A stretch of DNA of 64,000 bases, from NCBI GenBank assembly GCA_018303365.1, contig JAGVYI010000016.1, positions 15,330-79,329 of the forward strand, read 5' to 3'. Origin of the DNA: Candidatus Woesearchaeota archaeon (lineage in GTDB: Archaea; Nanobdellota; Nanobdellia; SCGC-AAA011-G17; JACPNG01). This document shows positions 10,218 through 62,561 of this stretch, piece by piece. Under the pieces are notes generated by a model. The model was given only the letters and a program-made list of their open reading frames with translations. It was not told where the DNA came from and searched no databases. Numbering within the stretch: the stretch's first letter is position 1; the number at the start of each line of letters is the position of its first letter. Made by a program: the position numbers and the translations under genes.

Positions 10218-10266
10218 TCACCTCTTTTTTGTTTTAGGTGTGCCTTATTTTAAATATCTTTGTTTT

Positions 10267-12564
10267 TTAGAATAAGCGACCTACCCAGCTTCCTATGTTA
10301 TCTATCATTCTTTCAATAACATTTCTTCTTTCTATCCCTTCTTCGGTTAACTCCTCTAATGCTTCCCGCCACTTTCCTGTCCTGATGAGCTTTACAACAT
10401 TCTCTTCTTCAAGCCCCTTTCTTTGCTTTACCAACTGTTCACGTTGCGCTAATTCCTCTGGTGGCAGTTCTGTTCCAAGAGCTGGTGCTGGCAAGTCTTC
10501 GCATAGGGGGGCGTCAAAATCAATAAGCCCGTCCCCATCACGGTCACAAATACTTTTTGTTGAGTCACTTGCTTCATTTATAAGACCGTCACAGTCTTCA
10601 TCCCTTCCTATTAGGTCACAGCACTCTGTTCCTACATTTCCTTTTTGTTCATAGTATTCGCACCTATTTGCGCATATTCCGTCTCCATCAAAATCAAACC
10701 ATCCACCACGGCACCCACTGCATTGTCCTTGTTCACATGTGAGGGCATTATTTGCAGCACAACTGTTGCCACATTCTCCACAATTGTTGGGGTCATTTCT
10801 TGCATCAAGTTCACACCCATCAGATAAGTCTCCGTTGCAATTTCTGAATCCTTGGTTACAACTTTCAATTAGACATACCCCAGATTCACACCTTCCCCTT
10901 GCATTTTGAAGATTACAACTGTTCCCTATTGCACCACAGTTACTTACGTCATTGTTTAGGTCTGCACAGGTGCTTGTTTGTGAATTCCACGAACAACTTT
11001 CTCCTGTTGCAACGTTGCATGGGTTTTGCAAGCAAGTTGTTTCATCTTTATAGTCTTGGCAGCTATTTGCATTTTCTTGGCATGCTGTACATAGGTCTGG
11101 TAGAAGAGTTCTTTGTGTGTAAAAGCAATTGCCCCCACATGTATCACAGACTTGTCTTGAGCATGTGCTTAGAAGGCCGCTTCCACATTCTTGACAGGAT
11201 GCGCAGGCACATTCTCCCCTGTTAATACATGCTGGGTTTGATGAACAGGCATCCTGTGTTGCACACCCATCTGAGCCTATTTGGCAACCTGCGGGGGTGT
11301 TCCTACATATATCTTGGCAATCATTTATCCCGTCTTCGTCTGAATCTCCTGCGGGTACAAGACGATATCCTTGGCAGATTCTGTTATCCTGAGTGCATTC
11401 TCCGTGAGTATTACATTCTTTTTCTCCACCACAGGTTCGTCCTTCAAATGTTCTGCTTAGGATACAGCCTGATGGGCACGTACAAATGCTTGGATTTCCT
11501 TTGATGCTTGGGTTTGTACATGTTTCGCCACATGCTGCAACATCTGTTGTCACCACCTGTTGTTGACCTACGCAATCCGGGTCTGGTGTGCTGCACCTTA
11601 ATGCACACCCGTTTCCCGCGGCACATGTTGATATTGACGTACAATCTTGGTCATAGTATGCACAATTTACTCCTAATTCTACCGGGCAAAACCCATCAGT
11701 TGCTCCGCATGCATAACATGTGTTGCAGATTTCTACTGCTTGTCTTGAATTGAGAGTGAAACCAAGTAGTCCGCAGGCGGTTGTTGTTCTTTCTCCTTCA
11801 ACAATTGTCCTTGTAGGCTGGGTTGTTTGCTGCTCTGTTCCTGTTTGCGTGCTTGCAGGAGCACTTGCCCTTATTGTTAGGCTTGTCTGCCCTGTTGCTC
11901 CAGCACTGTCTGTTACTGTAAGCCTGACAGTGTATTGACCTGCACTTTGATAGGTGTGGCTTGGGTTTTGTATCCTAGCTGTTTGTTCGTCTCCAAAATC
12001 CCAATTGTATGTAAGTATTCCTCCGTCTGGGTCTGATGAACCTAAACTATTGAATCGTACTGTTAGAGGAACTGTTCCTGAAAGAGGGTCTGCGTTTGCC
12101 CTTGCAGTTGGAGGATTGTTTAGCGGCTCTTGGGTTGTTCCTGTTTGTTGTGGTGCTGTTACGGTTATTGTGACAGTTTGACTTGCGCTTTCTCCTTTGT
12201 CATCTCTTAATGTAAATGTTGCTGTGTAGATTCCAGGTTGATTATAAGTTTTGGTTGGATTCTGGCTGTTAACTGGCTGAGACCCATCACCATAATCCCA
12301 TGTGGCAACTGTTGGGTCTCCATCTGGATCTGTTCCAGAACCAAAGAACCTTATAGTATGAGGGGCATTTCCTGATGGAGGGTTAGCTTCTATACTTATT
12401 ATTGTAGGTGCTCTGTTTTCTGGTTGTGCTTGCTCCTCTCCTGTCTCTTCAGGTGGTGGTGGGGGGATACCTCCTGGACCGCCGAGCTGAGCATTAGATA
12501 CTCCTATAGGGAGTAAAATAAGAATGATTAGTATTGCAATTAGTCTCTCTGACCTCTTTTTCAT
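10267..12564 (-). CDS. Large secreted protein with two PKD-like domains, Asp-rich Ca-binding (thrombospondin type-3-like) repeats and a Cys-rich region.
   Basis: Signal peptide, then PPPPPEE. PKD signatures WDYGDGS and WDFGDE. DSDEDGINDCQD and DRDGDGLIDFD repeats. It shares a CSTPDPDC motif with the neighbouring protein. Confidence 0.7.
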   Translation of the reverse strand: MKKRSERLIAILIILILLPIGVSNAQLGGPGGIPPPPPEETGEEQAQPENRAPTIISIEANPPSGNAPHTIRFFGSGTDPDGDPTVATWDYGDGSQPVNSQNPTKTYNQPGIYTATFTLRDDKGESASQTVTITVTAPQQTGTTQEPLNNPPTARANADPLSGTVPLTVRFNSLGSSDPDGGILTYNWDFGDEQTARIQNPSHTYQSAGQYTVRLTVTDSAGATGQTSLTIRASAPASTQTGTEQQTTQPTRTIVEGERTTTACGLLGFTLNSRQAVEICNTCYACGATDGFCPVELGVNCAYYDQDCTSISTCAAGNGCALRCSTPDPDCVGQQQVVTTDVAACGETCTNPSIKGNPSICTCPSGCILSRTFEGRTCGGEKECNTHGECTQDNRICQGYRLVPAGDSDEDGINDCQDICRNTPAGCQIGSDGCATQDACSSNPACINRGECACASCQECGSGLLSTCSRQVCDTCGGNCFYTQRTLLPDLCTACQENANSCQDYKDETTCLQNPCNVATGESCSWNSQTSTCADLNNDVSNCGAIGNSCNLQNARGRCESGVCLIESCNQGFRNCNGDLSDGCELDARNDPNNCGECGNSCAANNALTCEQGQCSGCRGGWFDFDGDGICANRCEYYEQKGNVGTECCDLIGRDEDCDGLINEASDSTKSICDRDGDGLIDFDAPLCEDLPAPALGTELPPEELAQREQLVKQRKGLEEENVVKLIRTGKWREALEELTEEGIERRNVIERMIDNIGSWVGRLF

Positions 12565-12647
12565 GCTTGATTCTCTTTTTATTTGTATTTTTGAAAATAT
12601 GTTTTTCTTTTAAAACCTTTTGATTCTATTTTCAATAGTTTTTTAAG

Positions 12648-13670
12648 GTGCGTTCTTTTCTTTTTTTGGTCATGGTTAATCAAGAATTAATTAATTATCT
12701 TAAAAATGGGCTTTCACAGGGAAAATCTGTTGACTATCTTCGCTCTGAGCTTACTAAAGCGGGGTGGCCTTCTTCCTTGATTTTTGATGCTGTTCAAGCA
12801 GTTTCAGTACAGAAAACTTCTTTACCAAAACAACCTGCTTTAGAGAAAGGGCCTGAACAACCTTCTGTTCAGAAGCCTTTCGAGAAGACACCTGTTTCTT
12901 CCCCTATTAAAGCTGGATCTTCTTCAGAGGAGTATTTTGGTTATAGTGCTCCTGCTCCAAGTAAATTAAAGCTTTCTTCCAAACACTATATTGCCTTTGG
13001 AGCTGCAGGTATTTCTCTTGTTGTACTTGGAATTGTTTTGTTCTTTGTTTTTGGGCCTGGTGGTGGAGAGCGTGTCCTTACTGTTTCTGAACAATCTGGT
13101 GGTGGTTCAGCTTCAGTTGCTTCTTCTGGAAGTAGTACTACCCCTCTTAGCAATACTTCTTCTCAGAGTATTCCTTCTTCAGGTGACTTTGGCATACCAT
13201 CTAGTCAGGTTAATGCCCTTGGCAGTCAGGGTAGCGCGGTTTGTGAAAATGGGGTTTTAGAGGCTGGAGAGACCTGTGATGGGAATTGTCCGACTAACTG
13301 CACTTCCTCATCTTCCTGCGTTAGTGCTGTCCTTTATGGAAGCGCTCCTTCTTGCACCTCACAATGTGTTCTTGCCAACATAACCTCTTGTGTTTCTGGA
13401 GATGGCTGCTGCCCCTTTGTTTGCAATGGTTTTACTGATTCTGACTGTTCTGGCGGACAGCAAATTAATCAAACGTCAAATCAGAGTTCTGGACAAGGAG
13501 CGTTGCAAAGCTGTTCTTCTCAGGGAGGTAGTGTTTGTCCTTCCGGCCAAAGCTGTTCTGGCAGCATTGTTTCTGCTTCAGATACTTCTTTATGCTGTAT
13601 CGGTACTTGTGAGAGTTCATCTGAAGAAGACTCTGGAGTTGCTCCTCCACCTCCACCCCCTTCAATGTGA
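12648..13670 (+). CDS. Single-pass membrane protein with a Ser-rich linker and a Cys-rich extracellular C-terminal domain.
   Basis: N-terminal soluble domain, TM at YIAFGAAGISLVVLGIVLFFVF, Ser-rich segment, at least 20 Cys in the last 150 aa, and a PPPPPPPS tail. Confidence 0.5.
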   Translation: MRSFLFLVMVNQELINYLKNGLSQGKSVDYLRSELTKAGWPSSLIFDAVQAVSVQKTSLPKQPALEKGPEQPSVQKPFEKTPVSSPIKAGSSSEEYFGYSAPAPSKLKLSSKHYIAFGAAGISLVVLGIVLFFVFGPGGGERVLTVSEQSGGGSASVASSGSSTTPLSNTSSQSIPSSGDFGIPSSQVNALGSQGSAVCENGVLEAGETCDGNCPTNCTSSSSCVSAVLYGSAPSCTSQCVLANITSCVSGDGCCPFVCNGFTDSDCSGGQQINQTSNQSSGQGALQSCSSQGGSVCPSGQSCSGSIVSASDTSLCCIGTCESSSEEDSGVAPPPPPPSM

Positions 13671-13745
13671 TGGGTGGTGTTCTAGTTGATTTGTTGATGG
13701 GTTGTTACGAAAATCTTTATATACCGCTTATAGTCTTTTTATTTA

Positions 13746-14327
13746 TTGAAAATGAAGCAACACTCTATGAATCGTAAAGTTATCTTACCCTTTGTTGGTT
13801 TACTTTCTTTGTCTCTTCTTGCTGTTTTTGCTTTTTCCCAACAGTCTGTTGTCGAGGATATACTCCGTGTTTCTTATAGCCAACTTAGAAATCAAGTTGG
13901 TTTTCGAGTTGGCACTACTGGCGTTACCTTCCCAAATTTTTATGTCTGGTCCAACTATTCCTATAATTATGTTGGTCTTGATAATCAAAGTAATTACCAA
14001 TATCTGCGCTTTCCTATGTACTTTGCTGAAACTCAACAACTCGCAGAGGGCTGGGTAAGTGGTTCAAAGCTAATTTTTTCTGCTCCAAATAATACAAATC
14101 CAGATGGTGTTGAGACTGTTAATACACAGTTTTACGTTCTCTACAAAGAAGGAGTTCCTTCAAATGCGGGTCATCGCTATACTTATCTTTGTTGCTATGA
14201 CGATTCTGCTGGGGCCTACCCAAACTCAACAGTTCTCTGCCAAAATGCAGACACAACTAAAATCACGAGCAAAGTTACAGACAACAGACCCAATGGTTAT
14301 TACTGCGGTTGGAATATAGCCAGGTGA
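13746..14327 (+). CDS. Secreted protein, unknown function.
   Basis: Signal peptide MKMKQHSMNRKVILPFVGLLSLSLLAVFAFS. Confidence 0.4.
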   Translation: MKMKQHSMNRKVILPFVGLLSLSLLAVFAFSQQSVVEDILRVSYSQLRNQVGFRVGTTGVTFPNFYVWSNYSYNYVGLDNQSNYQYLRFPMYFAETQQLAEGWVSGSKLIFSAPNNTNPDGVETVNTQFYVLYKEGVPSNAGHRYTYLCCYDDSAGAYPNSTVLCQNADTTKITSKVTDNRPNGYYCGWNIAR

Positions 14328-14331
14328 TTAG

Positions 14332-14577
14332 ATGATTAAGAAATCTATATTTGCTTTGATTTTTGTTTTTGGTTTATTCTTGTTTGGTTGCAGTTCTGGG
14401 CTAAGGGAAGCGAGCGGAAGTCTTCCTGTATCTCCCGGAACACCTGAGCAGGCGTCTGAGAATGCCGGTGTTGAGTCTGGTACTCCAAGCAGTCCTCCTC
14501 CATTTACCGGAGCTGTTATTGCTGAAGTTCCTCCTTTACCTGAACCTCCAGTGCAAGAAAGGTCTTCTCCTTACTAA
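14332..14577 (+). CDS. Small Pro-rich lipoprotein-like protein.
   Basis: LFLFGCSS lipobox-like motif after a signal sequence. Confidence 0.3.
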   Translation: MIKKSIFALIFVFGLFLFGCSSGLREASGSLPVSPGTPEQASENAGVESGTPSSPPPFTGAVIAEVPPLPEPPVQERSSPY

Positions 14578-14602
14578 CTTTTGCTTTCTATAAATTTTTC
14601 AG

Positions 14603-15141
14603 AAACATTTATTAATAACTCATTAAACATTAATTTCAATGAAAAAGAGGTCAAAGAAGAAGCCTTCTTCCAAGTTTTACCATCACCAGCTTTACATTCC
14701 AATCATTCTTGTTCTTTCTTTTGCTTCCCTTGCTTTGCTTTGGATATTTAGCACAGGTGCAACCGGTTATGCCACCTACAGCTTCGGCAACACTGTTCCG
14801 CAGGGGTTTGGAGTTCCGTGGAATGTATTTTCTTCACAGCATGAGAATATAATAAGCTCATCAAACGGAATGATTACTGCCCAGGCAGACTATGTCTATA
14901 AGTATGGCTATGTGTGGGATGGCAGCCAATGGACGCGCTTTGAGTTTCCACAGCAAAAGGTGTCTAATAATTGGGTTGCAAGAGAAGCTTCTTTTGATGT
15001 TAACAGTCTTGGTCTTACTGCTGGAGAATATTCTGTTGTTGCATATACATGCCAGTATGTGAATAAGGAATGGAAGTGCGGCTGTCGAACCTCACAGTGT
15101 CGAAACGGTGTTGATGGTGGTATGTGGCAGTTGCAGAAGGT
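14603..15141 (+). repeat. Direct repeat copy A, about 540 bp: promoter plus 5' coding region shared with 21063..21607.
   Basis: Manual alignment gives about 85-90% nt identity, including the TATA box, the ATG, the signal anchor and the CQYVN.EWKCGCRTSQCR domain. Confidence 0.8.
14608..14618 (+). promoter_or_regulatory. Archaeal TATA box (TTTATTAATAA) centred about 26 nt upstream of the ATG of paralog A; implies a leaderless transcript.
   Basis: An identical element at identical spacing precedes paralog B (21068..21078). Confidence 0.45.
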
Positions 15142-15991
15142 AAGAGTTACTGGTTCTTCTCTTGGTCCAAATGCTGAAATTCCAAGGAATATTGAGCTAG
15201 ATGTTCCCCATAGCCAAACCATATATAGAGGCGATTTATACTATTTAACTATAAATGTCTGGGGTGTTTCTAGCTTAGAGGGAATACATTACAAAGTGTT
15301 GTATTGTGATGCCACTGTTAATCCTAGTTGTGAACCAAACGTTGAGGGAAATAACATGATTCTAAATTCTAGTAATTGGAGATTTTTTAGAGGAACGACG
15401 AGAGGATGGAATAACTTCAACGCGACAGTTGCAAGATGGAGTGGGGATCGTACAGGGGGATTCAATTCCCTTTTTGGGCGCACAACCCCTCCAGAGGGTG
15501 AATATCGAGTTAGGTTTGTGTTGAATGGTATTGAATCTCAAGTCTATAATTTTAAGGTTGAGGATAGCAGGCCGGACAGGTCTCCTAGTTCGGCTGATTT
15601 TACTATATATCCGGCCCAAATGATCGAAGGCCAATCAGTTACCCTCCAGATTATAGCTACAGGAATTGCTTCAAGAAATGGTCTTGAAGATGCTGCAATT
15701 GAAATCAATACCTGTTATGCGGGGTCTTTTTCAAGTGATTATGAGGAACGAGATTGTTTTCCTGTTGGAGGTCAGAACACGCAGCGTCTTCCTCCTGCAG
15801 GGGATGATCCCTGGATACTTAGCAGTGACTCTTTATTTTCTCGAGCAACACTGTTAACTAGACCTTCAACTATTGTTCGTCCTAGGGAGGGTGGTAGTTA
15901 TCGGCCAGAGGAAGGTTACTACAATGTGTGGATTAAGATATATGGTACTGAATCTCATGTAAGCAGAATTGGAGTTAGAAGTTCTCCATAG
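14639..15991 (+). CDS. Surface protein paralog A: conserved N-terminal signal-anchor plus Cys-containing domain, with a unique C-terminal domain.
   Basis: MKKRSKKKPSSKFYHHQLYIPIILVLSFASLALLWIF... The first ~170 aa are nearly identical to those of the 21099 gene. Confidence 0.65.
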   Translation: MKKRSKKKPSSKFYHHQLYIPIILVLSFASLALLWIFSTGATGYATYSFGNTVPQGFGVPWNVFSSQHENIISSSNGMITAQADYVYKYGYVWDGSQWTRFEFPQQKVSNNWVAREASFDVNSLGLTAGEYSVVAYTCQYVNKEWKCGCRTSQCRNGVDGGMWQLQKVRVTGSSLGPNAEIPRNIELDVPHSQTIYRGDLYYLTINVWGVSSLEGIHYKVLYCDATVNPSCEPNVEGNNMILNSSNWRFFRGTTRGWNNFNATVARWSGDRTGGFNSLFGRTTPPEGEYRVRFVLNGIESQVYNFKVEDSRPDRSPSSADFTIYPAQMIEGQSVTLQIIATGIASRNGLEDAAIEINTCYAGSFSSDYEERDCFPVGGQNTQRLPPAGDDPWILSSDSLFSRATLLTRPSTIVRPREGGSYRPEEGYYNVWIKIYGTESHVSRIGVRSSP

Positions 15992-16031
15992 TTTTCGAAA
16001 TATTTATATATTCCCATATAATCTTTCATTT

Positions 16032-16529
16032 ATGTTTTACCAAAAGAGGGGTATTTCACCACTTATTGCTACTGTCTTGATTCTTGGTTTTACCGTGGCA
16101 CTTGGTGTTCTTATTATTAATTTTAGCACTTCGTTTACAAGAAATATTCAGGAACAGACAACGGAATCTTCAAACACCCAGATTATCTGTGCTCAAGAAG
16201 TACTATTTAGCATTTCTAATGCCTGCGATGCAGGAAATAATATTGTTCGCGTGACTGTCAAAAATGATGGTTCCAGAGATATTGATCGGTTTATCTCTAG
16301 ATTTTATAGGAGTGAGAGTGATGTTGCTCAAGAGACCCTTACATTTATTAATAATGGCAATGGCATTTCTTCTTTTAACATAGAGTCTGATGAGGTTACT
16401 ATTCCTAATGGTCCTGTTCGCCAAGTTGAACTTATCCCTGTTGTTACTATCTCTGGCAAATCTGTTACGTGTTCAACCAATGTTGACTCTTTCGGAGCTG
16501 TTCTTGGAGATGGTCTTCTTGGTTGCTGA
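16032..16529 (+). CDS. Archaeal pilin-like protein (DUF361-type).
   Basis: MFYQKRGISPLIATVLILGFTVALGVLI. The internal Met was chosen as the start; the ORF-track start at 15969 is upstream. Confidence 0.55.
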   Translation: MFYQKRGISPLIATVLILGFTVALGVLIINFSTSFTRNIQEQTTESSNTQIICAQEVLFSISNACDAGNNIVRVTVKNDGSRDIDRFISRFYRSESDVAQETLTFINNGNGISSFNIESDEVTIPNGPVRQVELIPVVTISGKSVTCSTNVDSFGAVLGDGLLGC

Positions 16530-16538
16530 AGGGTCATT

Positions 16539-17060
16539 ATGAAGCTGGGTGAGGTTTGGGTTTCTGCAGTTCTTTACTTGGCTTTGGGTCTTATACTTAT
16601 CACAATTGTTCTTGCTGCCGGCATCCCTCTTATTAACAAAATACGAGACCGCAATACTGTTGCGCAAACAAAGGACATTCTTTTTGTCCTTGATAAAAAC
16701 ATCCGAACTGTTGCTTCTGAAGGCACAGGCTCAAAGCGCTATGTAAGTCCGGTTAACATTGATGCGGGAGAGCTTGTTTTTGATTCTGACCAAGACAGAC
16801 TTTCCTGGAGCATGACAACAAGCAACAAACTTGCAGAGCCCAGTCTTACACTTCAGGAAGGAGTACTGTTTCTTCGCCTTGATGAGACTCCTATTTCTGA
16901 TGAGTATAAGGTTAATCTGTGGCTTGATTACCTGAATCTCTATGACCTTTTCATGGTTTCAGACTTTTCCAATCCTTTTTCTGGAACTTATAGTCTTTCT
17001 ATTGAAAATAATGGAACCTATGCCAATGGTCGACCCACGATTGTTTTAAGGGTTGCTTAG
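16539..17060 (+). CDS. Pilin-like / pilus-assembly accessory protein (FlaF/FlaG-like N-terminal anchor).
   Basis: N-terminal hydrophobic anchor VSAVLYLALGLILITIVLAAGIPLINKIR, then a beta-rich domain. Confidence 0.4.
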   Translation: MKLGEVWVSAVLYLALGLILITIVLAAGIPLINKIRDRNTVAQTKDILFVLDKNIRTVASEGTGSKRYVSPVNIDAGELVFDSDQDRLSWSMTTSNKLAEPSLTLQEGVLFLRLDETPISDEYKVNLWLDYLNLYDLFMVSDFSNPFSGTYSLSIENNGTYANGRPTIVLRVA

Positions 17061-17609
17061 GAAAAAACCTCTGATATACCTTTCTGGTTAAATTTTATTA
17101 ACTCTTTCACCAGAAATCCCAGTACTTTAGTACGGGGAGGATGTCACTGACGATTATTTCATAGATTGTCGTAAACTTCCAGAAGGGAATCCTTATAGAC
17201 CTCTGTATAATAGATTGGGAAGTTCTCATTATCGCCCTGTTGGTTGGCATAACATGGTGCATGAATTGCTACATAGGTTTGGAGCAACGGATATTTATCA
17301 AGGAACTCTTGATGTTGGAGACCCTCAAAGTAGAGAATTGGAAATATCAATGGACCAAAGATATGGGAGAGTATTATGGGAGATGAGATAAAGAATTGTG
17401 TAGAGTGGGTGGGTTTAGAAAGGGACGGAAATATTTGTTCACAAGAAGAATTGGAAAGCATATACTTAGATAGATACAATAGACAATTAATTGGATTAGA
17501 ATAGATTAAAATTCTTATTAAAAATATCTGTGTCTTATCTAACTTAGATTTAACAGAAAATTATATAAGCCCTTATTTTTTATAATCTTAGTCAAAAGAG
17601 GGTGATGCT

Positions 17610-19232
17610 GTGGAACTTGGTCTTTTTAGTAAAAAGAAAGAGAATCAACCGCAACAACCCCCTTCTTCAGTGCAATCTTCTTCTCAACAAAAACCTGTTT
17701 TTTCTCTTGAAGGTGATAAACCTCCAGCACAGCTTCCAGACTTTACAGATGTCTCAAAGGTTGATGTCCGCTACCCATTGCTTGCACCCTATGCTTTAGT
17801 TCACATTTACTGGGATGCTCCATCTCACGAGCTTGTCTATGAGGTTGAAGAGCCTCAACTCTCTTCTGAAGAAAAAGAAATGCTTTCAACCCTTGAGGAT
17901 GGTATTCGCGAGCTTATCAACATTAGCTTTGTAAACATCAAAGACGAGACGATCATTATTTCTTACCTTGAGAAAAATTTGCAGGTTTTACTCTCTGAGT
18001 TTCACCTACGTATAAAAAAAGAAACTTTCTTGAAGTTTATGTACTATATGTACCGCGACTTTGTCGGCCTTAATGAGATTGAGCCACTTATGCATGATTA
18101 TTATATTGAGGATATTGAATGCAACGGCTCCCAAACGCCCCTTTATATTATTCACCGCAAGTATCAGAATTTGCGAACAAATATTGTTTTTCCTTCAAAC
18201 CAGCCTCTTGCAAGTTTTGTTGAAAAGCTTGCACAGAAAACAGGGAAGTATGTATCATATGCAACGCCCCTTCTTGACGGCAGGCTTCCTGATGGTTCCC
18301 GTGTAAATGCAGTCTATTCCTCTGATGTTTCAAGCAGAGGACCGACTTTTACTATTAGGAAGTTTTCGCGTGAGCCATGGACTCCAATAAAACTTGTTGA
18401 TTTTCGTACTGTTTCTCCCGAGATTCTAGCATATCTTTGGATTCTTATTGAAAACGGTACCAATATCATGGTTGTTGGCGGGACCGGCTCTGGAAAGACT
18501 TCATTTTTGAATGCTATTGCTTTTTTTATTCCGCCTGCTGCCCGTATTGTCTCTATTGAAGATACAAAAGAACTGCAACTTGAGCATGAAAACTGGCTTC
18601 CAAGCATTGCCAGAGAAGGGATTGGTCTTGCTTCGTCCACTGGTCAGAAAAGGGGAGAGGTTACTTTATTCGACCTTCTTCGTGAGAGTTTTCGCCAGCG
18701 TCCTGATTATGTTATTGTTGGAGAGATTCGTGGCAAAGAGGCCTTTGTCCTTATCCAAGGGGCAAGTTCTGGCCATCCTTCTTTTGCAACAATGCATGCG
18801 GAGTCTGTTGAGTCCATGGTCAGGCGTCTAATGACTGAGCCTATTAATTTATCTCCCGCACTTGTTGAATCTATTGATGCTGTCTGCGTTTTAGTTCATG
18901 CAAAGGTTGGCGGCAAAGATGTTCGCCGGATTCGCGATATTTCTGAAATTATCAAGGTTTATCCAGACGGACAGGTGAAAACTAACGTACCCTTTGTCAG
19001 GGATCCACGCAGCGACAAATTTTATTTCCGTACTGGAAGCTATGTCTTTCAAAAGGTTGTTACCCAGCAAGGCATCAACCTGCAGGAGCTGAATCTTGAG
19101 TTTTCACGCAGGGCAAAGCTTCTTTTCAAACTATATGAGCAGAAAATTTTTGGATTTTCCGAAGTTCAGCAAGTTATTCACCAGTACTATAAATCTTCTA
19201 AGGAGGTTCTTTCCAGGTTCGGGATTTCTTAA
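17610..19232 (+). CDS. Type II/IV secretion-family ATPase (FlaI/TadA/PilB-like) of the archaeal pilus system.
   Basis: Walker A VVGGTGSGKTSF, the Asp/His boxes and GEIRG. GTG start, with AGAGGGTGA 5 nt upstream. Confidence 0.8.
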   Translation: MELGLFSKKKENQPQQPPSSVQSSSQQKPVFSLEGDKPPAQLPDFTDVSKVDVRYPLLAPYALVHIYWDAPSHELVYEVEEPQLSSEEKEMLSTLEDGIRELINISFVNIKDETIIISYLEKNLQVLLSEFHLRIKKETFLKFMYYMYRDFVGLNEIEPLMHDYYIEDIECNGSQTPLYIIHRKYQNLRTNIVFPSNQPLASFVEKLAQKTGKYVSYATPLLDGRLPDGSRVNAVYSSDVSSRGPTFTIRKFSREPWTPIKLVDFRTVSPEILAYLWILIENGTNIMVVGGTGSGKTSFLNAIAFFIPPAARIVSIEDTKELQLEHENWLPSIAREGIGLASSTGQKRGEVTLFDLLRESFRQRPDYVIVGEIRGKEAFVLIQGASSGHPSFATMHAESVESMVRRLMTEPINLSPALVESIDAVCVLVHAKVGGKDVRRIRDISEIIKVYPDGQVKTNVPFVRDPRSDKFYFRTGSYVFQKVVTQQGINLQELNLEFSRRAKLLFKLYEQKIFGFSEVQQVIHQYYKSSKEVLSRFGIS

Positions 19233-19234
19233 TT

Positions 19235-20209
19235 ATGGCAGACACATCTTCGTTTGTTGACAAAGAGACTCTTTCGCGCTATGTTGCTTTTCGCAAGAAG
19301 CACAAAGGGGATTTGAAAGATGAGTATGTTCTTTATTCTTCAAGCCCATTTGGACAGTTTGCTAATTCTATTTTTGAATCTGTTTCGCTAAATCTTATAA
19401 AAAAATATCCGCAATATTTCAAGAGTTTGTTTAAGGTCCTACGCGCTTCTGATTTTCCAATTCTTTCAAAGACATATGTCAGCATTATTCTACTTGTTGG
19501 GTTAGCTTCTTATCCTGTTTTTTTTATTCTTCTGCTTCTTTTATTTGGATTCTCAATTACCGGCTTTCTTAACACTTTTCTTCTAAGCCTTTTTGGTGCT
19601 GGACTTGCTCTTTTTCTTGCTTACCAATACCCTTCTTTTTTGGTTTCTTCGCGTCAGAGAAAGTTAAAAAATGACCTTCCATTTGCAGTTATCCATATGG
19701 CTGCTGTTGGAGGCAGCGGAGCCCATCCTTCTTCTATGTTCAACCTTATTGCAACCTCAGATGAGTATAAAGGGGTTCATCCAGAATTTAAGCGGGTTCT
19801 AAACGCTGTGAACCTTTTTGGATATGACCTAAGCACTGCTCTTCGCTCTGTTGCTGACAGTACTGGCTCGAGGGATATTCGCGACTTTTTCGGGGGTATG
19901 GCAACAACAATTGAAAGTGGCGGCAGCATGAAGGAGTTTCTTGATTCAAAGTCTGAGGACCTGATGGTAACATATCGTCTTGAGCGCAAGAAGTTTATCG
20001 AGAGCCTATCAACCTATTCTGATATTTACATTAGCCTATCAATTGGCGGGCCCCTTTTCTTTTTTATTGTCCTTGCTATCTTAAATCTACTTGGCGGTTC
20101 TGTCGGCGGGGTTGCGATCGGCACTCTTGCCACTATCGGTACTTTTGTTATCCTTCCTCTTATCAACCTCGGATTTTTAGCATTTTTAAAATTTAGCAGT
20201 TTAGAATGA
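19235..20209 (+). CDS. FlaJ/TadB-like membrane platform protein, first half.
   Basis: TM segments flank a GspF-like cytoplasmic helical domain. It starts 3 nt after the ATPase stop. Confidence 0.6.
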   Translation: MADTSSFVDKETLSRYVAFRKKHKGDLKDEYVLYSSSPFGQFANSIFESVSLNLIKKYPQYFKSLFKVLRASDFPILSKTYVSIILLVGLASYPVFFILLLLLFGFSITGFLNTFLLSLFGAGLALFLAYQYPSFLVSSRQRKLKNDLPFAVIHMAAVGGSGAHPSSMFNLIATSDEYKGVHPEFKRVLNAVNLFGYDLSTALRSVADSTGSRDIRDFFGGMATTIESGGSMKEFLDSKSEDLMVTYRLERKKFIESLSTYSDIYISLSIGGPLFFFIVLAILNLLGGSVGGVAIGTLATIGTFVILPLINLGFLAFLKFSSLE

Positions 20210-21060
20210 TTAATTTCAAGAAAGAATATTTTGTCGGCATCAGTCTTGCTTTGGTTTTACTAGTTCTAGATGTCTTGTTTCTTCGCTCTACCCGCTGGTT
20301 TATTGCTATTATTATTGTTTCTATCAATATTGGCTGGCTTCAGTTCTGGATTGACTTTTTTCGTGAACAGAACCGTCAGAAGGAAATTGATACAAAATTT
20401 CTTGAGTTTGTTCGCAATCTTGTCAGCACTGCCAAATCCGGTCTTTCAATTCCCAGGGCTATTATTCAAGCTTCTGGTGAGGACTATGGCGCTCTTACAC
20501 CATATGTTCGAAAGCTTTCTCACCAGGTTGAGTGGGGTGTTCCTGTTGAAAAGGCTCTTTTGACCTTTGCAAAGGATACTCGAAATGCTGTGATCAGCAG
20601 GTCTGTTTCTATTGTTATTGAAGCGAGCAAGGCTGGCGGTGATATAGAAAATGTTCTTGATTCTGTTACTGATTCTGTGATGTACGTAAAGAAAATCAAG
20701 CAGGAGAGGAAAAGCGGAACGTACTCGCAAATAGTCCAGGGTTATATTGTTTTTTTTATTTTCATTGCAATAATGCTTGTTTTGCAGCTCTGGCTTTTTC
20801 CACAGTTTTCTAATTTGAAAGGTCTTGGCCAAGGCGGCTCAGAGCTTGCTGGTTCTCTTGGTACAGGTGCTATTTTCGGTGAAGGAAAGCGTGCTGACAT
20901 AGATAGCATTTTTTTTAGTCTTATTCTTGTACAAGGTTTTTTTTCGGGAGTTATGATTGGTGCGTTCTCTGAAGGAAGCGTGAAGCGCGGTCTTTTGCAT
21001 TCTCTTGTTTTGATGACTCTTGCAACGCTTATTATTACAACTGCGAAGGGCGGGATTTAG
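20206..21060 (+). CDS. FlaJ/TadC-like membrane platform protein, second half.
   Basis: A second GspF-like domain between TM segments. ATGA overlap with the first half. Confidence 0.6.
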   Translation: MINFKKEYFVGISLALVLLVLDVLFLRSTRWFIAIIIVSINIGWLQFWIDFFREQNRQKEIDTKFLEFVRNLVSTAKSGLSIPRAIIQASGEDYGALTPYVRKLSHQVEWGVPVEKALLTFAKDTRNAVISRSVSIVIEASKAGGDIENVLDSVTDSVMYVKKIKQERKSGTYSQIVQGYIVFFIFIAIMLVLQLWLFPQFSNLKGLGQGGSELAGSLGTGAIFGEGKRADIDSIFFSLILVQGFFSGVMIGAFSEGSVKRGLLHSLVLMTLATLIITTAKGGI

Positions 21061-21062
21061 CA

Positions 21063-21607
21063 AAACATTTATTAATAACCCATTAAACATTAATTTTAAT
21101 GAAAAAGAGATCAAAGAAGAAGCCTTCTTTTAAGTTTTACCATCACCAGCTTTACATTCCAATCCTTCTTGTTCTTTCTTTTGCCTCCCTTGCTTTGCTG
21201 TGGATATTTAGCACCGGTGCGACTGGTTATGCCACCTACAGCTTTGGCAACACTGTTCCGCAGGGGTTCGGTGTTCCTTGGAATTTGTTTTCCAGTCAGC
21301 ATGAGAACTTGCTTGATTCTTCTGATAATACAATAAATGTTAAGGCAACTTTTGTCTATAAGTGGGGTTATATATGGGATCATAATGTCAGGCAGTGGAA
21401 GGGGTTTGAGTTTCCACAGCAGAAGGTATTTAATAATTGGGTTGCAAGAGAGGCTTCTTTTGATCTTAATAGCTTAAACCTTGTCCCTGGAGAGTATTCT
21501 GTTGTTGCCTATACCTGCCAGTATGTGAATAATGAATGGAAGTGCGGCTGTCGAACCTCACAGTGTCGAAGCGGTGTTGATGGAGGCATGTGGCAGATAC
21601 AGAAGGT
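21063..21607 (+). repeat. Direct repeat copy B (partner of 14603..15141).
   Basis: See copy A. Confidence 0.8.
21068..21078 (+). promoter_or_regulatory. Archaeal TATA box (TTTATTAATAA) for paralog B; leaderless spacing.
   Basis: Same element and spacing as at 14608. Confidence 0.45.
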
Positions 21608-22832
21608 TGATATTATTTCTGGCATAACCAAAGTAGGGACTGTGACTTATCGTGATGGCGATGCTTTTATTGGAGAAAATAAAAATAATCCAAAATGGGT
21701 TTGGAATTTAGAAGGTTTAACTACAAGTAATCCTACTCTTGGTGTTGAAAATGATTGGAAATATAGGGGTGTGTCCGATAGGGATACTGGTGTTTCTAGT
21801 GCTATTGGGGTTAGACAGTGTACAAACCTTCCAAATAATTATATTACCATTTGTTTTGCTGATATTGTTGGTTTAAACGAGAACATAGATAATTATACTA
21901 TATCCTTTGAGGAGAATATTGATTTGAGTGGTGCTGGAGGAAGATTTTCAACTTATATAGCCCGAAATGTTATTACCATTAGTAGTAATACCCAAAGTAT
22001 TGACTTGCATTCTTCTGCATCCCACGTTGTTACAAATTATGTTGCTTTAGTTATAGATGATTTAGATTCTAATAAGATAAACTTGTTCTATAAGGGGAGT
22101 AGGGGTTTTGTATTCTTTAGTGATTTAGCGAATTCAAAAGTGGCACTCTCCAATGATTGGTCCAATGATTTGCGACTTGATTTGATGAGTGGGTCTGGTG
22201 ACTTATACTCTTTGCACATTAATTCTCCTGTTGATGTTATTTCAGCTTTGTTCCGTGCTAGTGGTGGACGCGGTTTTTCTTCTCTTGGTAGCACACGTGG
22301 TTATGAAGAGTCTGGAGAATTGGTGTGGCAGTCTGACGACCCTAATACCGGAGTTGCTCTTTACTCTTTGAATATAGGGGCAATAGATGCAGACCTTCGA
22401 ACGTTGTATGGTGTTGTCATAAAAAATCCACGCGGCAATGGGGCTTCTGATGAAATATCCTTAGAAGTTCCAAGCAAACAACTTAGGGGGATTATTGAGA
22501 TAACTTCTCCTTCACTTAGACAACGAAAGGAAATTGCACTGGGGGGGTCCATAGGCAATAATCCATTATTTTCGGATAGCAATTATGGACTACTTACTTT
22601 TTCAAGAGACAGTCCAAGCCTAGAAACCAGTCTGTCTAGTTCAGAGAATGATTATGGAAGGAGGATATTTATGGAAGTAGATGTTGATTCTATAGCATAC
22701 ACTTCCCGTTCTCTTGACCTTTCAAGGCTAAGAACAGCATCCCCCCAAAATCCAGTTACGATAAATCATTTATTAGGAAGAGATATTACAATAACCGGAG
22801 TAACAGATAATTCAATAACAGTACTACAATAA
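21099..22832 (+). CDS. Surface protein paralog B: the same conserved N-terminal module, with a different C-terminal domain.
   Basis: The N-terminal ~170 aa are nearly identical to the 14639 gene; the remaining ~400 aa are unrelated. Confidence 0.65.
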   Translation: MKKRSKKKPSFKFYHHQLYIPILLVLSFASLALLWIFSTGATGYATYSFGNTVPQGFGVPWNLFSSQHENLLDSSDNTINVKATFVYKWGYIWDHNVRQWKGFEFPQQKVFNNWVAREASFDLNSLNLVPGEYSVVAYTCQYVNNEWKCGCRTSQCRSGVDGGMWQIQKVDIISGITKVGTVTYRDGDAFIGENKNNPKWVWNLEGLTTSNPTLGVENDWKYRGVSDRDTGVSSAIGVRQCTNLPNNYITICFADIVGLNENIDNYTISFEENIDLSGAGGRFSTYIARNVITISSNTQSIDLHSSASHVVTNYVALVIDDLDSNKINLFYKGSRGFVFFSDLANSKVALSNDWSNDLRLDLMSGSGDLYSLHINSPVDVISALFRASGGRGFSSLGSTRGYEESGELVWQSDDPNTGVALYSLNIGAIDADLRTLYGVVIKNPRGNGASDEISLEVPSKQLRGIIEITSPSLRQRKEIALGGSIGNNPLFSDSNYGLLTFSRDSPSLETSLSSSENDYGRRIFMEVDVDSIAYTSRSLDLSRLRTASPQNPVTINHLLGRDITITGVTDNSITVLQ

Positions 22833-22888
22833 ATTCTATCGGTTTAATATTCACAAAAAGCTTATAAGCCTCTTTTCTTTTTGTATTT

Positions 22889-25834
22889 TTGATGTTTAAA
22901 AGAGGTGTAAGCCATATTGACTGGGCTATTAGTATTGGCATCTTTCTTGTCCTTGTCCTCAGCATTGTTGTTTTTTTAAGACCTGGAGTTGAGACTTTTA
23001 CAAGCCATCAGGCGCTTGTGCAAACTGTCGAGTCAAACCTTAGAAGTGAATTTTCCAACGAACTTGAAAAGACTCCAATTTTTATTAATTCCACTGAGCA
23101 GCGTGCTGGAGATTACCAGATTACTTTCACTTTTGATGGTGGGGGCTTTCCATTTGAGGGAGAGAATGAAGAGTTTGTTGTTGTTGACTCTTTGAGCGCT
23201 GTTGTCCCGACTCAAATTTCAGGGGATGGCAGGGACCGTACACTTCGCTTTGACGGGTTTTTAGACCCACGCAAGACAAATGTGTTTTATATTCTCCATG
23301 CAAACGACACAACTTATTTGTCTTCTAATTTGGAGAACACATTTGTTCTTTTTGCTGGCTTAAACTTTTCTTATGACTTTGGAGTTACCAGAATAGAGCG
23401 CGGTTTTGACCTTTCAAGACTTCGTACAATTGAGCAGGATTATGATGCACTTAAAGAAACTTGGGGAATTCCTTCGGACAGAGAGTTTCTTATTCAAATT
23501 GCGCAGACTGACACATTTCGCTATACTTTTGATGACATTATTTTTCGCTATGCCAGACAAGACCCTACTTTTCAATCAGATGTTTTTGTTAAGGAGTTTA
23601 GAGATATTCTTCTTGACCCAAATGGTACGCGCACACCAATTCTTGTGAATATTCAAGCTGGGTTTTTTGGTGAGCCTACAAAGATTATATGCGCTGTTGA
23701 TGAAGATTGTGGGGTTTGCAACAGTTGTGTTAACGGCCAATGTGAAGCAGTCTCTTTTGGCAGTGATCCTCTTAACCAATGCAAAGATGTTGACTGCAGT
23801 GATTATTACTTTGGGTTTGTCGGCGGTGTTTGCTATGGGCGCGCTTCTATCCAGTCTGTTTGCAATGGTGCTGGGGCATGTACACAGGTTTCCGAGGATG
23901 ATTGTCCTGTTTCTGGTCGCGGAGAGTCATCAGGTGTGAGCTGTAGTGAATGCCAGCAAGAGAGCGGGTGCTCTGGGACCACTATGGGTTCTTGCTCTGT
24001 TGCTCTAGATGGTACAGATTGCATGGGGCTGTGCTCGCAGTGTGTTTCAGGTGCGTGCCGCCAGGCACCTTCTGATGATGCCTCGTGCGGCACTATTGAC
24101 TGCGATAACCTTGATGGATATAGCGTTGTTGGAGACAACTCTGCAAGCGGCAGTGCGAGCTGTGTTTTACGGGATTACTCCGACTTAACTTCCAATCGCT
24201 GTGAGGGGCTTCTTGACTGCCGAGATCCAAATACCGCCCCTGATTGTTCTGTTTTTACAGATAGGACTTTAGCTAATTGCGGTGTTTGCCAGCGTGTGCA
24301 AAGCTGTTCTCCTAATGGTGCGACCTGTACCACCTATCCTGCTAATACTCCCTGCGGCCCAGACAGGGTTTGCACTGAGACGGGTCAGTGCGTACGCTCT
24401 CCTCTTGAGATTCGTGGGGTCAAGCGCTTTACTTCCGGCAATTATGAATATGGTTTTGTTCGTATTTATCCTGGCGGGAAAATTATTCTTGATGGAGACA
24501 ATGTTGCTATTACTGTTGATGCATTTTTTGAAAATAACGGTGCTGTTGAGAGCAATACTTTTTCTCCACATCTTACTATTCGCGGCAGAGAGATTACTGG
24601 TTCTGGCCCTTATGCCCTTCAAGGAGGAAGGGGTCGCTATGAATGCGGGTGGAATGATGCTTGCTGGTGGGGAAGCGGAGGAGATTCCTCTCTTGTTTTA
24701 GATGCCAGTGCTGTATCTACAGGGGCTGTTAATGTTCGTTCTGGTTCTGGAGGTCCTGGAGGCAGGGCTTCTGTGATATTCAGGAATGCCCAAAATGGAA
24801 ACGTTGCGTCTTTGAGTGTTATTGGGGCTTCAGGAGCCAATAGCGGCATTAGTTCTTTTGGATGTAGCGGTTATAATGGTGGCAGTGCTGATGTTTCCTT
24901 TGAGTCTAGCTCTTTAAATATTGGGTCTGTTGTTGTTCAAGGAGGAGATGCTTCTTCTCCTGCATGTGTCGGTGAACCTGGGACCGGCGGGAGTGCTACT
25001 TTTCGTGGCAGCGGCAGTGGAGCTTCTATTACCTTTACTTCTTCTTTTAATTTAGAGGGTGGGGATGGCACCAGCGGTTATAGTTCTTATTATAGAACTT
25101 CTGTTTTTGGGCGCGGTGGATCTGCAGAGGTTTCTTTGAGCAATGGCGGAGATGTTTCTTTTCTTGGGCCAGTAAACCTTCAAGGCGGTATCGGCGGTTA
25201 CTCCTCAGGTGCGGGTGTTATGAGCATATCTGCAAACAGACTATCCCAAAAAAGGGAACTTGTTATTGCTGCTGGCCAAGCGCGAAGCGGTGTTTGCCGT
25301 GCTTATACCTGTTGGGATTCTGGGGCAGTGCTTAATTCACAGGGTGGAGAAGCGCGTTTGAGCTTTTCAGGGAATTCTTATACTTCTGAGGGGCCTGTTA
25401 CACTTACTGCTGGGTCTGGGTTTTCTGTCTCTTCTGGAGGCAGCGCCCTTGTTTCCATTCAAGCAACAAACAGCTTTTCTTATACTTCTCCTTTTACTCT
25501 GCGCGCCGGGAACTCTTTTGATGGGTGCCTTAATGGCTATTATGGAGGAAATGCAATTGTTGATATCAATAGTCAGACTATTTCAGGCAGCTCCTCTTTT
25601 ACTACTTATGGTGGTAATGGAGGCCGCGCCTCTGAACCTTACTGGTGTAATGATGCGTGCTATGAACGTGTGGGGGGTAATGGGGGAGATTCTCTTTTGC
25701 GCCTTCGTACCAGTTCAACAGACCCACCCCATAATGGGCAGGGAGGGAGTGTGGGAGGCAATGCCGGAAGTTTTTGTCGTTATAAGCAGTCTTCGCGACC
25801 AACAAATGGGAGGTTTGCAACAGAAAGATATTGA
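22889..25834 (+). CDS. Giant (981 aa) pilin-anchored surface protein: class-III-like N-terminus, a Cys-rich region, and a long Gly/Ser-rich repetitive region that may be beta-helix-like.
   Basis: MMFKRGVSHIDWAISIGIFLVLVLSIVVF. Dense Cys clusters across aa 260-480. Recurrent GG.G/SGS segments in the C-terminal half. Confidence 0.65.
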   Translation: MMFKRGVSHIDWAISIGIFLVLVLSIVVFLRPGVETFTSHQALVQTVESNLRSEFSNELEKTPIFINSTEQRAGDYQITFTFDGGGFPFEGENEEFVVVDSLSAVVPTQISGDGRDRTLRFDGFLDPRKTNVFYILHANDTTYLSSNLENTFVLFAGLNFSYDFGVTRIERGFDLSRLRTIEQDYDALKETWGIPSDREFLIQIAQTDTFRYTFDDIIFRYARQDPTFQSDVFVKEFRDILLDPNGTRTPILVNIQAGFFGEPTKIICAVDEDCGVCNSCVNGQCEAVSFGSDPLNQCKDVDCSDYYFGFVGGVCYGRASIQSVCNGAGACTQVSEDDCPVSGRGESSGVSCSECQQESGCSGTTMGSCSVALDGTDCMGLCSQCVSGACRQAPSDDASCGTIDCDNLDGYSVVGDNSASGSASCVLRDYSDLTSNRCEGLLDCRDPNTAPDCSVFTDRTLANCGVCQRVQSCSPNGATCTTYPANTPCGPDRVCTETGQCVRSPLEIRGVKRFTSGNYEYGFVRIYPGGKIILDGDNVAITVDAFFENNGAVESNTFSPHLTIRGREITGSGPYALQGGRGRYECGWNDACWWGSGGDSSLVLDASAVSTGAVNVRSGSGGPGGRASVIFRNAQNGNVASLSVIGASGANSGISSFGCSGYNGGSADVSFESSSLNIGSVVVQGGDASSPACVGEPGTGGSATFRGSGSGASITFTSSFNLEGGDGTSGYSSYYRTSVFGRGGSAEVSLSNGGDVSFLGPVNLQGGIGGYSSGAGVMSISANRLSQKRELVIAAGQARSGVCRAYTCWDSGAVLNSQGGEARLSFSGNSYTSEGPVTLTAGSGFSVSSGGSALVSIQATNSFSYTSPFTLRAGNSFDGCLNGYYGGNAIVDINSQTISGSSSFTTYGGNGGRASEPYWCNDACYERVGGNGGDSLLRLRTSSTDPPHNGQGGSVGGNAGSFCRYKQSSRPTNGRFATERY

Positions 25835-26550
25835 AAATGACTTTTTTGTTTTGGGATAGAGATGGTGTTTTTTCAAAAAAAGGGTCTACTCTCTTTTTTT
25901 TAATCGTTCTTATACTCTTAGGAATAGGCGCTTATTTTGGATATCGTTATTTTTTTCCTGATGACCAGAAAACCTTTAATCAGTCTATCTTAGAAGAAGA
26001 TGTTGGGGGTTGCTCTAGCATTGATGATCCTTTTTTGCGCCGCTCTTGCATTCATTTTATTTTGGGTAATCCCAACATTACTGAAGAACATTTTCTTTTT
26101 ACTGACCCTTTAGCACGCACTTTTGAGAGCATCCATAGCGCCACTGTTTATCCTAATGGAACACAAATTCCTTGCGAACGCATTGACGATGCTGGTCTTA
26201 GCGAGGCCTGCCTTTCCTTGAAAGGGCAGGATACCACGTGCTCTGATTCGTGCAAGGCTTGGGTTTCTTATCTTAGTGCAATAAAAAAAGATGATCCTTC
26301 TTTATGCGATTCCCTGACAGAGGTTCTTGTTTCATCTAAGGGGGTTTCACTTCGAGGGGCTTGCTTTTCTTTTTTTGAGGGTTATGATACTCCACCACTT
26401 GAATCTCTTGAACACAATGAGAAGTATTACCGCGATGCTCTTTTTTCTTTGAAATTAGAAGAATGCGAAAAAATTACTCTGGACTCTTTTCGTGAGAAGT
26501 GCAGAGAAGATGTTTCTCTACGCCTTTCTGTTCTGGAGGATCAACAATGA
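25831..26550 (+). CDS. Class-III signal-like membrane-anchored Cys-containing protein.
   Basis: SKKGSTLFFLIVLILLGIGAYFGY. ATGA overlap with the upstream gene. Confidence 0.45.
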   Translation: MKMTFLFWDRDGVFSKKGSTLFFLIVLILLGIGAYFGYRYFFPDDQKTFNQSILEEDVGGCSSIDDPFLRRSCIHFILGNPNITEEHFLFTDPLARTFESIHSATVYPNGTQIPCERIDDAGLSEACLSLKGQDTTCSDSCKAWVSYLSAIKKDDPSLCDSLTEVLVSSKGVSLRGACFSFFEGYDTPPLESLEHNEKYYRDALFSLKLEECEKITLDSFREKCREDVSLRLSVLEDQQ

Positions 26551-62486: not shown

Positions 62487-62561
62487 TGGGGTTGCCCGGA
62501 TTTGGACCGGGGTCTGGGCATCCCGAATGCCCGATGCTCGTCCAAGCTACACCACAACCCC
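62487..62561 (-). tRNA. tRNA-Pro (anticodon CGG).
   Basis: Acceptor GGGGUUG/CAACCCC, anticodon arm GGGCA-UUCGGGA-UGCCC, T-arm CCCGG-UCCAAAU-CCGGG. An extra G lies at -1. Confidence 0.75.

Follow-up and report, generated by a model that had tools for sequence, protein, structure and literature searches.

The stretch of DNA analyzed here, which we call the window, comprises 64,000 nucleotides (nt) from Candidatus Woesearchaeota archaeon, a tiny DPANN archaeon of groundwater. It contains two genes, pA and pB, that begin with nearly the same sequence, continue into unrelated ones, and lie on either side of the core genes of a type IV pilus operon. The public records of both proteins come from this organism and describe them as hypothetical. 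A preliminary description of the locus proposed that the direct repeat formed by the two gene starts can mediate deletion or duplication of the intervening pilus genes, and compared the constant N-termini and variable C-termini to cassette-type variation of surface-exposed tips. Our analysis favors another origin. We consider it probable that an old partial gene duplication gave rise to two lineage-specific, membrane-anchored surface proteins with a common domain, inserted in the pilus operon.

A common 5' module in two genes

The repeat and the two genes that carry it consist of the following features, with lengths of proteins in amino acids (aa):

14603..15141, plus strand: direct repeat copy A, covering the putative core promoter and the first ~168 codons of pA (self-BLASTN, repeat search)
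14603..14638, plus strand: shared upstream 36 nt of copy A with a TATA-like TTTATTAATA; 34 of 36 nt identical to 21063-21098
14639..15991, plus strand: pA, 450 aa, hypothetical protein (MBS3117766.1, locus tag J4430_02710)
14750..15154, plus strand: shared domain in pA, with invariant C138, C147, G148, C149, C154, W163, and Q166; all-beta in its AlphaFold2 (AF2) model
21063..21607, plus strand: direct repeat copy B, covering the putative core promoter and the first ~170 codons of pB (self-BLASTN, repeat search)
21063..21098, plus strand: shared upstream 36 nt of copy B, with the same putative promoter (pattern and identity comparison)
21099..22832, plus strand: pB, 577 aa, hypothetical protein (MBS3117773.1, locus tag J4430_02745)
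21210..21620, plus strand: shared domain in pB (profile match with alignment A6, AF2 model)

When the whole window is compared with itself by self-BLASTN, the only non-self match is the repeat: 14603-15141 aligns with 21063-21607 at 83.7% identity over 545 columns (E = 7.6e-167), and no other repeat is found within the 64 kilobases (kb). A repeat search resolves two gapless blocks in direct orientation, 14603-14847 versus 21063-21307 (91% identity) and 14919-15141 versus 21385-21607 (86% identity), with a spacing of 6460-6466 nt between the copies. A central stretch of ~70 nt in the alignment is just ~55-60% identical, and for that reason the figure of 85-90% identity given in the preliminary description is slightly high. 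The repeat itself, its placement 6.46 kb apart around the pilin, ATPase, and platform genes, and the protein lengths of 450 and 577 aa were described correctly.

The edges of the repeat are well defined. It begins with AAACATTTATTAATAAC, 36 nt upstream of both start codons (14639 and 21099), which in copy B is 2 nt past the stop codon of the second T2SSF platform gene. The 3' edge is sharp and falls at codon ~170/172. Over their N-terminal 172 aa, the two proteins are 81% identical, and this alignment includes, as proposed earlier, the signal anchor and a domain with the motif CQYVN.EWKCGCRTSQCR, present in both modules. The longest exact run shared by the copies is 37 nt. Upstream of the start codons, the copies differ at 2 positions, and the TATA-like TTTATTAATA box lies ~26 nt before the ATG. 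A search with a 34-nt upstream pattern finds two occurrences, in the repeat copies only, with 0 expected. Archaeal promoters with a B recognition element (BRE) and TATA box have a standard spacing geometry relative to the transcript start. Judged by that geometry, the shared 36 nt is a putative BRE/TATA core promoter, and the distance from box to ATG suggests that the mRNA is probably leaderless.

Both proteins start with a lysine-rich N-terminus and one transmembrane helix or signal anchor (aa 19-36 in the AF2 model of pB), followed by the shared domain, a predicted beta-sandwich that spans aa ~38-172 in pA and ~38-174 in pB. Beyond this domain, pA continues into two internally repeated, beta-rich units and pB into a 405-aa orphan region that is likewise beta-rich. 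The internal repeat of pA (z = 4.0; ...PPEGEYRVRFVLNGIESQVYNFKVE / ...PEEGYYNVWIKIYGTESHVSRIGV) suggests two immunoglobulin (Ig)-like units. In the AF2 model of pB, the predicted local distance difference test score (pLDDT) exceeds 90 for the shared domain; the C-terminal part, at 30-55, is modeled unreliably, yet as beta-rich.

Past the shared module, pA and pB yield no BLASTP alignment better than E = 5, and a Smith-Waterman comparison of the C-termini against 300 shuffles gives z = 0.95. At the level of sequence, this leads us to reject the idea that the C-termini are diverged homologues of each other and upholds the view that they are unrelated. A very remote kinship of fold, which would weigh against that view, is possible, the fold prediction being of low confidence. 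With full-length pB as the query, no homologue of its C-terminus was found among 5.8 billion clusters; the only further matches (P0014-P0016) align to the shared domain, which in those proteins lies C-terminal to a beta-helix. The C-terminus of pA has no Pfam or NCBIfam match at E <= 0.1, and none in the window or in the related loci described below.

A similar N-terminus occurs elsewhere in the window, in an 829-aa serine-rich surface protein (57348-59837) with an arginine/lysine-rich start and one hydrophobic helix, followed by F-T-G-F-V-V. The motif [ST/L]-T-G-[NYF] is found directly behind the anchor in pA and pB and again in many DPANN homologues (P0021, P0029, P0078, P0153, and P0164), and may be a signal for export or processing in DPANN archaea.

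Divergence between the copies

The modules of pA and pB differ far more at silent than at replacement positions. Overall, there are 0.12 nonsynonymous (dN) and 0.60 synonymous (dS) substitutions per site, with dN 0.014 and dS 0.33 in codons 1-62, and dN/dS ranges from 0.04 to 0.2 across the module. Four-fold degenerate sites differ at 7 of 29 positions in codons 1-62, 4 of 6 in codons 63-100, and 6 of 24 in codons 101-170. About 25% of such sites differ between the copies. Strain-level divergence, measured on contigs that carry the same locus, is 0.02-0.4%.

These contigs come from assemblies made by different pipelines. Up to ~21 kb of the locus is recovered at 99.96-99.99% identity in assemblies from JGI, ENA (MEGAHIT k141 and ANAN16 scaffolds), and Logan and in an NCBI metagenome-assembled genome (MAG). 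Look-ups were made with pA (7 contigs), the platform genes T2SSF1 (15) and T2SSF2 (22), and the lipoprotein-like gene g81 (22), and cover at least 16 metagenome assemblies. Against this background, the sequence comparison indicates that the duplication is old relative to the population, and that what keeps the modules alike is mainly purifying selection on protein and promoter rather than frequent recombination.

The alternative that survives best is concerted evolution, in which recurrent gene conversion mainly keeps the modules alike and the duplication is possibly much older than the synonymous divergence implies. We regard it as unlikely, but three observations fit it, and the first two weigh against selection as the main cause of the likeness: (i) in the middle of contig L010, a 47-nt tract of copy B (21269-21315) carries 10 clustered differences from the window, 9 of them the copy-A base, such that some exchange of sequence between the copies is possible; (ii) synonymous change is uneven, affecting 8 of 20 identical-residue codons among the central 38 codons versus 22 of 120 in the flanks (Fisher p = 0.04); (iii) the upstream 36 nt (2/36 differing) are more alike than the four-fold sites (7/29). 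However, the best-conserved segments still show ~24% four-fold difference, which implies that homogenization, if it occurs, is rare. In the L010 tract, A-like and B-like informative sites (10 and 5) alternate, and 9 of its 10 differences are synonymous; a divergent B allele or bubble-merging by the assembler fits the tract at least equally well. Selection alone, at the dN/dS observed, can account for the identity of the proteins, and conservation of a promoter is expected from its function.

The shared domain and the pilus operon

The domain common to pA and pB is predicted to fold into an all-beta sandwich of ~135 aa (pLDDT 92.8 for pA). In the models, the homology gives out at aa 168-170, together with the final strand of the domain, so the duplicated unit would be exactly the promoter, the anchor, and one whole domain. 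Relatives were sought among 1.84 billion cluster representatives (50% identity clusters) with a two-module profile as the query. At E <= 1e-3 the family has at least 736 representatives, of which 112 also pass E <= 1e-10; below 1e-30, solely the clusters of pA and pB themselves are returned. A profile of the 47-sequence alignment A6 matches the whole ~135-aa domain in pA (E = 1.1e-39) and pB (E = 1.3e-37).

The family signature is Y-x-C ... W-K-C-G-C-R-x-x-x-C ... W-Q-x-Q, also seen as C-x8-CGC-x4-C ... WQxQ. The seven residues listed above for pA are invariant in A6. In the 150-sequence alignment A5 (pB numbering), C140, C149, and W165 are invariant, and G150, C151, C156, and Q168 occur in at least 90% of rows. 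Most bacterial members have an extra N-terminal cysteine pair, which is absent in pA and pB. Among the best 150 relatives, the domain directly follows an N-terminal signal peptide or anchor in 87, is C-terminal in 34, stands alone in 21, and is internal in 6 (no domain call in 2). The C-termini behind the domain vary strongly in length, and total protein length reaches 1624 aa. In pA and pB, the hydrophobic helix ahead of the domain, arranged as in those 87 relatives, predicts an extracytoplasmic placement. No Pfam or NCBIfam model covers the domain, even in stand-alone members at E <= 1, no Pfam carbohydrate-binding module (CBM) matches it even at E <= 1, and a sequence search finds no matching PDB chain. 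The members with named sources belong to DPANN archaea (Ca. Aenigmarchaeota) and to a CPR bacterium (Ca. Moranbacteria), with a TARA marine sample as a further source.

Two other searches were less productive. An indexed search with the domain alignment returned 13 small proteins, and the degenerate pattern W-x-CGCRTSQC, searched in a collection of metagenome contigs without the Rifle contigs, matched two short unrelated stretches. A variant of the signature occurs in contig L096, where three changes at 21587-21600 turn the conserved W-Q-x-Q of pB into W-K-x-K (P0011); these changes are not copy-A-like.

The family consists mostly of bacterial secreted enzymes or lipoproteins. Pfam partner domains, called in 91 members, include Beta_helix (11), TIG (11), MopE (4), fn3 (3), Peptidase_M23 (3), and NosD (3), and, in single cases, Polysacc_lyase, GH114, GH18, GH5, Polysacc_deac_1, Apiosidase, Amidase_2, SLT_3, and F5/8 type C; Chondroitinase_B likewise occurs among the partners. 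The domain thus resembles CBM-type and FN3/Ig-like accessory modules in several ways. First, it is an all-beta sandwich of about 135 aa. Second, in its relatives it is a terminal accessory on Beta_helix lyase-like proteins and on GH5, GH18, GH114, polysaccharide deacetylase, M23, Amidase_2, and SLT enzymes. Third, it is predicted to be secreted. Glycan binding is predicted because this partner spectrum resembles that of carbohydrate- or cell-wall-binding accessory modules, and the enzymes of the relatives, rather than any partners in pA and pB themselves, suggest a surface or glycan-binding module. Two points count against this assignment: the partners in archaeal members (GLUG, Laminin_G_3, and CARDB-like) are not enzymes, and the predicted function derives from fold class and partner domains alone. 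More tentatively still, and with the odds rather against it, the four-cysteine beta-sandwich could be a new family of glycan- or cell-surface-binding modules that small episymbionts use as a base for diverse surface proteins that bind the host envelope, here duplicated with its promoter into two co-regulated adhesins within the pilus operon.

Genes for T2SSE, T2SSF, and a pilin with a class III signal peptide lie in one cluster around pA and pB, which identifies the surrounding locus as an archaeal type IV pilus operon. For comparison, 80 Woesearchaeota/Nanoarchaeia loci were gathered with the ATPase as the query (54-66% identity) and inspected over +-10 kb. The main features of the locus and their occurrence in these relatives are as follows:

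7863..16031, no strand assigned: 8.2-kb lineage-specific insertion between the pilin-like gene w156 and pil165, with g794, a PKD protein, g340, g193, lipoprotein g81, and pA
16032..16529, plus strand: type IV pilin pil165, class III signal peptide (KRG/ISPLIATVLILGF); TIGR02537 (archaellin/type IV pilin N-terminal domain) at 27.9 bits versus a cut-off of 20, UpsA-like; in 60 of 80 loci
16539..17060, plus strand: second pilin-like protein, pil173; weak DUF7289 match; in 65 of 80 loci
17610..19232, plus strand: pilus assembly ATPase, T2SSE/VirB11-type; PF00437, E = 2.4e-34; orthologues 54-66% identical in 80 loci
19235-20209 and 20206-21060, plus strand: two T2SSF platform genes; PF00482 twice (1e-13, 3e-17); in 77 of 80 and 72 of 80 loci
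22892..25834, plus strand: pilin-like g981; homologue of ~258 aa in relatives, -4 to +1 nt from the T2SSF2 stop codon

Many of the 80 loci keep pil165, pil173, both T2SSF genes, g154, and the N-terminal ~260 aa of g981. In the four loci with the best synteny (L021, L027, L026, and L018), the operon is contiguous in the order adenylate kinase - w251 - w145 - w156 - pil165 - pil173 - ATPase - T2SSF1 - T2SSF2 - g981 homologue (258 aa) - g154, and both the 8.2-kb insertion and a 1.8-kb insertion (21061-22891), which in the window consists of pB alone between T2SSF2 and g981, are missing. None of the 80 loci has a homologue of pA, pB, g794, the PKD protein, g340, g193, g81, g239, or g148, and a profile search for the shared domain found it in 0 of 80 within +-10 kb, with the window as a working positive control. 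The analysis turned up no sister species with pA and pB. Since the operon is contiguous in the relatives and lacks both genes, pA and pB are, on this comparison, lineage-specific insertions into a conserved pilus operon. As the insertions are separate, the "bracketing" of the core genes is a by-product and not a designed cassette.

The position of the genes allows a second alternative, namely that the shared module is a pilus-specific docking device by which the machinery or the fiber of the type IV pilus acquires different cargo or adhesin domains. Both genes indeed lie inside the operon, each directly 5' of a pilin-like gene (pA of pil165 and pB of g981). We nevertheless judge this improbable. 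The domain is missing from all 80 orthologous loci, and the archaeal homologues P0079, P0129, and P0029 have surroundings without T2SSE or T2SSF genes, which argues that the domain is not pilus-specific; nor does a family made up mostly of bacterial secreted enzymes or lipoproteins fit such a role. Moreover, pA and pB are not type IV pilins themselves. Their sequence KFYHHQLYIPIILVL lacks G/A at position -1 and has no prepilin peptidase motif, and neither protein matches any NCBIfam or Pfam model, TIGR02537 included, which in this locus matches only pil165.

The window differs from its relatives in further respects. The 8.2-kb block (7863-16031) holds a 794-aa open reading frame (ORF) and a 765-aa PKD-domain ORF (minus strand), the cysteine-rich g340, g193, the 81-aa lipoprotein-like g81, and pA. 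The guanine-plus-cytosine (GC) content is raised at 8-12 kb, to 0.44-0.48 versus about 0.40. Relative to its homologues, g981 carries an extension of ~720 aa, reaching 980 aa; the extra part is cysteine-rich, then glycine/serine-rich, with a GC content of 0.47. Two further small new genes, g239 (25831-26550) and g148 (26995-27441), lie 3' of g981 and are absent from relatives. Between pil173 and the ATPase gene there is a gap of 550 nt (17061-17609), compared with ~45-50 nt in four close-synteny relatives; the ORFs in it are all small (plus strand, 42-45 aa; minus strand, 106 aa), and it has no Rfam family match. In L018, a 652-aa minus-strand ORF lies between the pil173 and ATPase homologues. 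The first T2SSF protein (19235-20209) has 324 aa versus ~433 aa in relatives (L021 11814-13115), where it has an extra N-terminal region of ~110 aa and its gene follows the ATPase gene after ~200 nt. At 12637, all other assemblies have two extra A's (AATAAAG versus AATAG), with which the callable start of g340 gives 350 rather than 340 aa; the extra bases probably lie upstream of the real g340 ATG. Rfam models find a single tRNA in the window and no match within the pA-pB locus; ARAGORN calls a tRNA-Pro(CGG) at 62487-62561 that is below the Rfam tRNA gathering threshold.

In Nanoarchaeota, nonsynonymous single-nucleotide polymorphisms (SNPs) were reported at raised density in hypothetical surface proteins with an N-terminal anchor and in a pilus platform protein homologous to FlaJ/TadC, and the authors discuss these proteins as possibly related to host interaction (PMC6142677).

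Population contigs and the origin of the arrangement

The contigs described above bear directly on the proposal that the repeats rearrange the operon. All contigs long enough to tell have the canonical gene order and gene sizes, with the two C-termini the same throughout; A-type sequence is found at copy A and B-type sequence at copy B without exception. No deletion, duplication, or recombinant junction occurs in spanning contigs from at least 16 assemblies, and no hybrid protein is found in the 90% clusters of the two proteins (5 and 8 near-identical members). The locus is therefore structurally invariant in the assembled population. Short contigs end within both repeats (14701, 14850, 21121, 21161, and 21492), as repeat-induced fragmentation predicts.

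Two contigs depart from this picture at their ends. In L008 and L009, the 3' flank of T2SSF2 is joined to 61 nt that are 100% copy-A-like, which could be read as a duplication or circle junction. We do not take this as firm evidence, as the join lies within 141 nt (one k-mer) of the ends of MEGAHIT k141 contigs and the normal junction (L105) is present in the same sample. A similar SNP cluster is seen at the opposite ends of these contigs: 15 SNPs in 85 nt (12454-12538) in the 5'-terminal part of the gene for the PKD protein, in contigs otherwise 99.6% identical. This cluster is either a hypervariable N-terminus or a mix of strains at the contig end. Together, the L010 and L008/L009 anomalies hint weakly at occasional exchange, not at rearrangement. 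On a bolder reading, the L010 mosaic and the L008/L009 junction would be traces of rare exchange between copies A and B, by real recombination that can excise or duplicate the pilus core.

On these data, the chances are slim that the repeats are working recombination substrates, with the pilin-ATPase-platform block deleted, duplicated, or excised, or the C-terminal cassettes swapped, to give phase or antigenic variation. The geometry fits, in that the core genes lie between direct repeats of ~540 nt. Breaks within the repeats occur in several assemblies, and the L008/L009 ends resemble the expected junction. However, those ends are better explained as a contig-end or strain-mix artefact, and every spanning contig has the canonical order. 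The copies are 84% identical, and their longest perfect run, 37 nt, makes them a poor substrate for homologous recombination. Their ~25% four-fold divergence implies that they have long coexisted without collapse. A swap of cassettes, in turn, would call for crossover at a second site, of which there is none, the homology being 5' only, and the 64-kb window holds no silent or extra cassettes. We therefore do not retain the suggestion that the repeats mediate deletion or duplication of the pilus block. A chimeric mis-join or other assembly or binning artefact as the source of the second copy can be set aside almost entirely: the source is metagenome-assembled and contigs often break at repeats, but the 21-kb stretch recurs at 99.96-99.99% identity in assemblies from different pipelines (JGI, MEGAHIT k141, ANAN16, and the NCBI MAG), and the copies differ at 16% of positions, each reading in frame into a long ORF.

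Gene conversion between Neisseria pilE and pilS, and the constant-N/variable-C polymorphic proteins of contact-dependent inhibition (CDI) and Rhs systems, are examples of cassette-type or variable surface systems. Like these, pA and pB have a constant N-terminus, differing C-termini, and repeated DNA at the constant part. Unlike pilE/pilS, there are no promoterless silent cassettes within 64 kb; both copies have the promoter-like 36 nt and full ORFs. Unlike cassette systems in general, there is no homology in the 3' flanks and, in the assembled contigs, no population variation in the attached C-terminus. Unlike CDI/Rhs, the downstream region has neither orphan C-terminal modules nor immunity-like genes; it contains pilin genes instead.

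A parallel is found in tandem pilin paralogues of related loci (L011 6463-7184, L028 325-1000, L060 8329-9189, and L079 7243-9152), which are 80-96% identical over 130-320 nt of 5' sequence; the common part begins 76 nt upstream of the ATG in L060. As with pA and pB, these Woesearchaeota pilins combine a local duplication and a near-identical 5' module with diverging 3' parts. A similar constant-N pattern is known from Haloferax volcanii, where the pilins PilA1-6 have a conserved hydrophobic domain. Archaeal type IV pilin sets have their own module, a class III signal peptide with a hydrophobic helix, whereas pA and pB have no [KR]-G/A motif. In addition, pA and pB differ from the tandem pilins in that they share a whole 135-aa globular domain, are 6.5 kb apart, and have C-termini that are unrelated rather than diverged.

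The explanation that we favor, an old partial gene duplication, would run as follows. The duplication copied a module consisting of the core promoter, the lysine-rich N-terminus with its signal-anchor helix, and one complete, ~135-aa beta-sandwich of disulfide type. Past the domain boundary, the genes would have come to part ways, pA running into two repeats of Ig-like appearance and pB into the 405-aa orphan, with no relation between these C-terminal regions. The pA gene would have come in at the end of the 8.2-kb block of surface genes 5' of the major pilin, and pB alone between T2SSF2 and g981, with purifying selection on protein and promoter keeping the modules alike ever since. The two proteins would thus display distinct distal domains on top of a membrane-proximal binding or stalk domain that they have in common, and would be co-expressed from near-identical putative promoters beside the pilus genes. 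A plausible role would be attachment to a host or substrate.

Partial gene duplication is a well-known type of event; what is modestly new is the domain family, so far without a name, and the way surface genes have accreted in the operon. The family is large, confidently folded, and without annotation, which makes it a good candidate for a new Pfam/CAZy-type entry. In this organism, the pilus operon is a collecting site for lineage-specific surface genes, namely the 8.2-kb block, pB, the g981 extension, and two small genes. Such accretion is relevant to the diversification of the attachment surface in host-dependent DPANN archaea.

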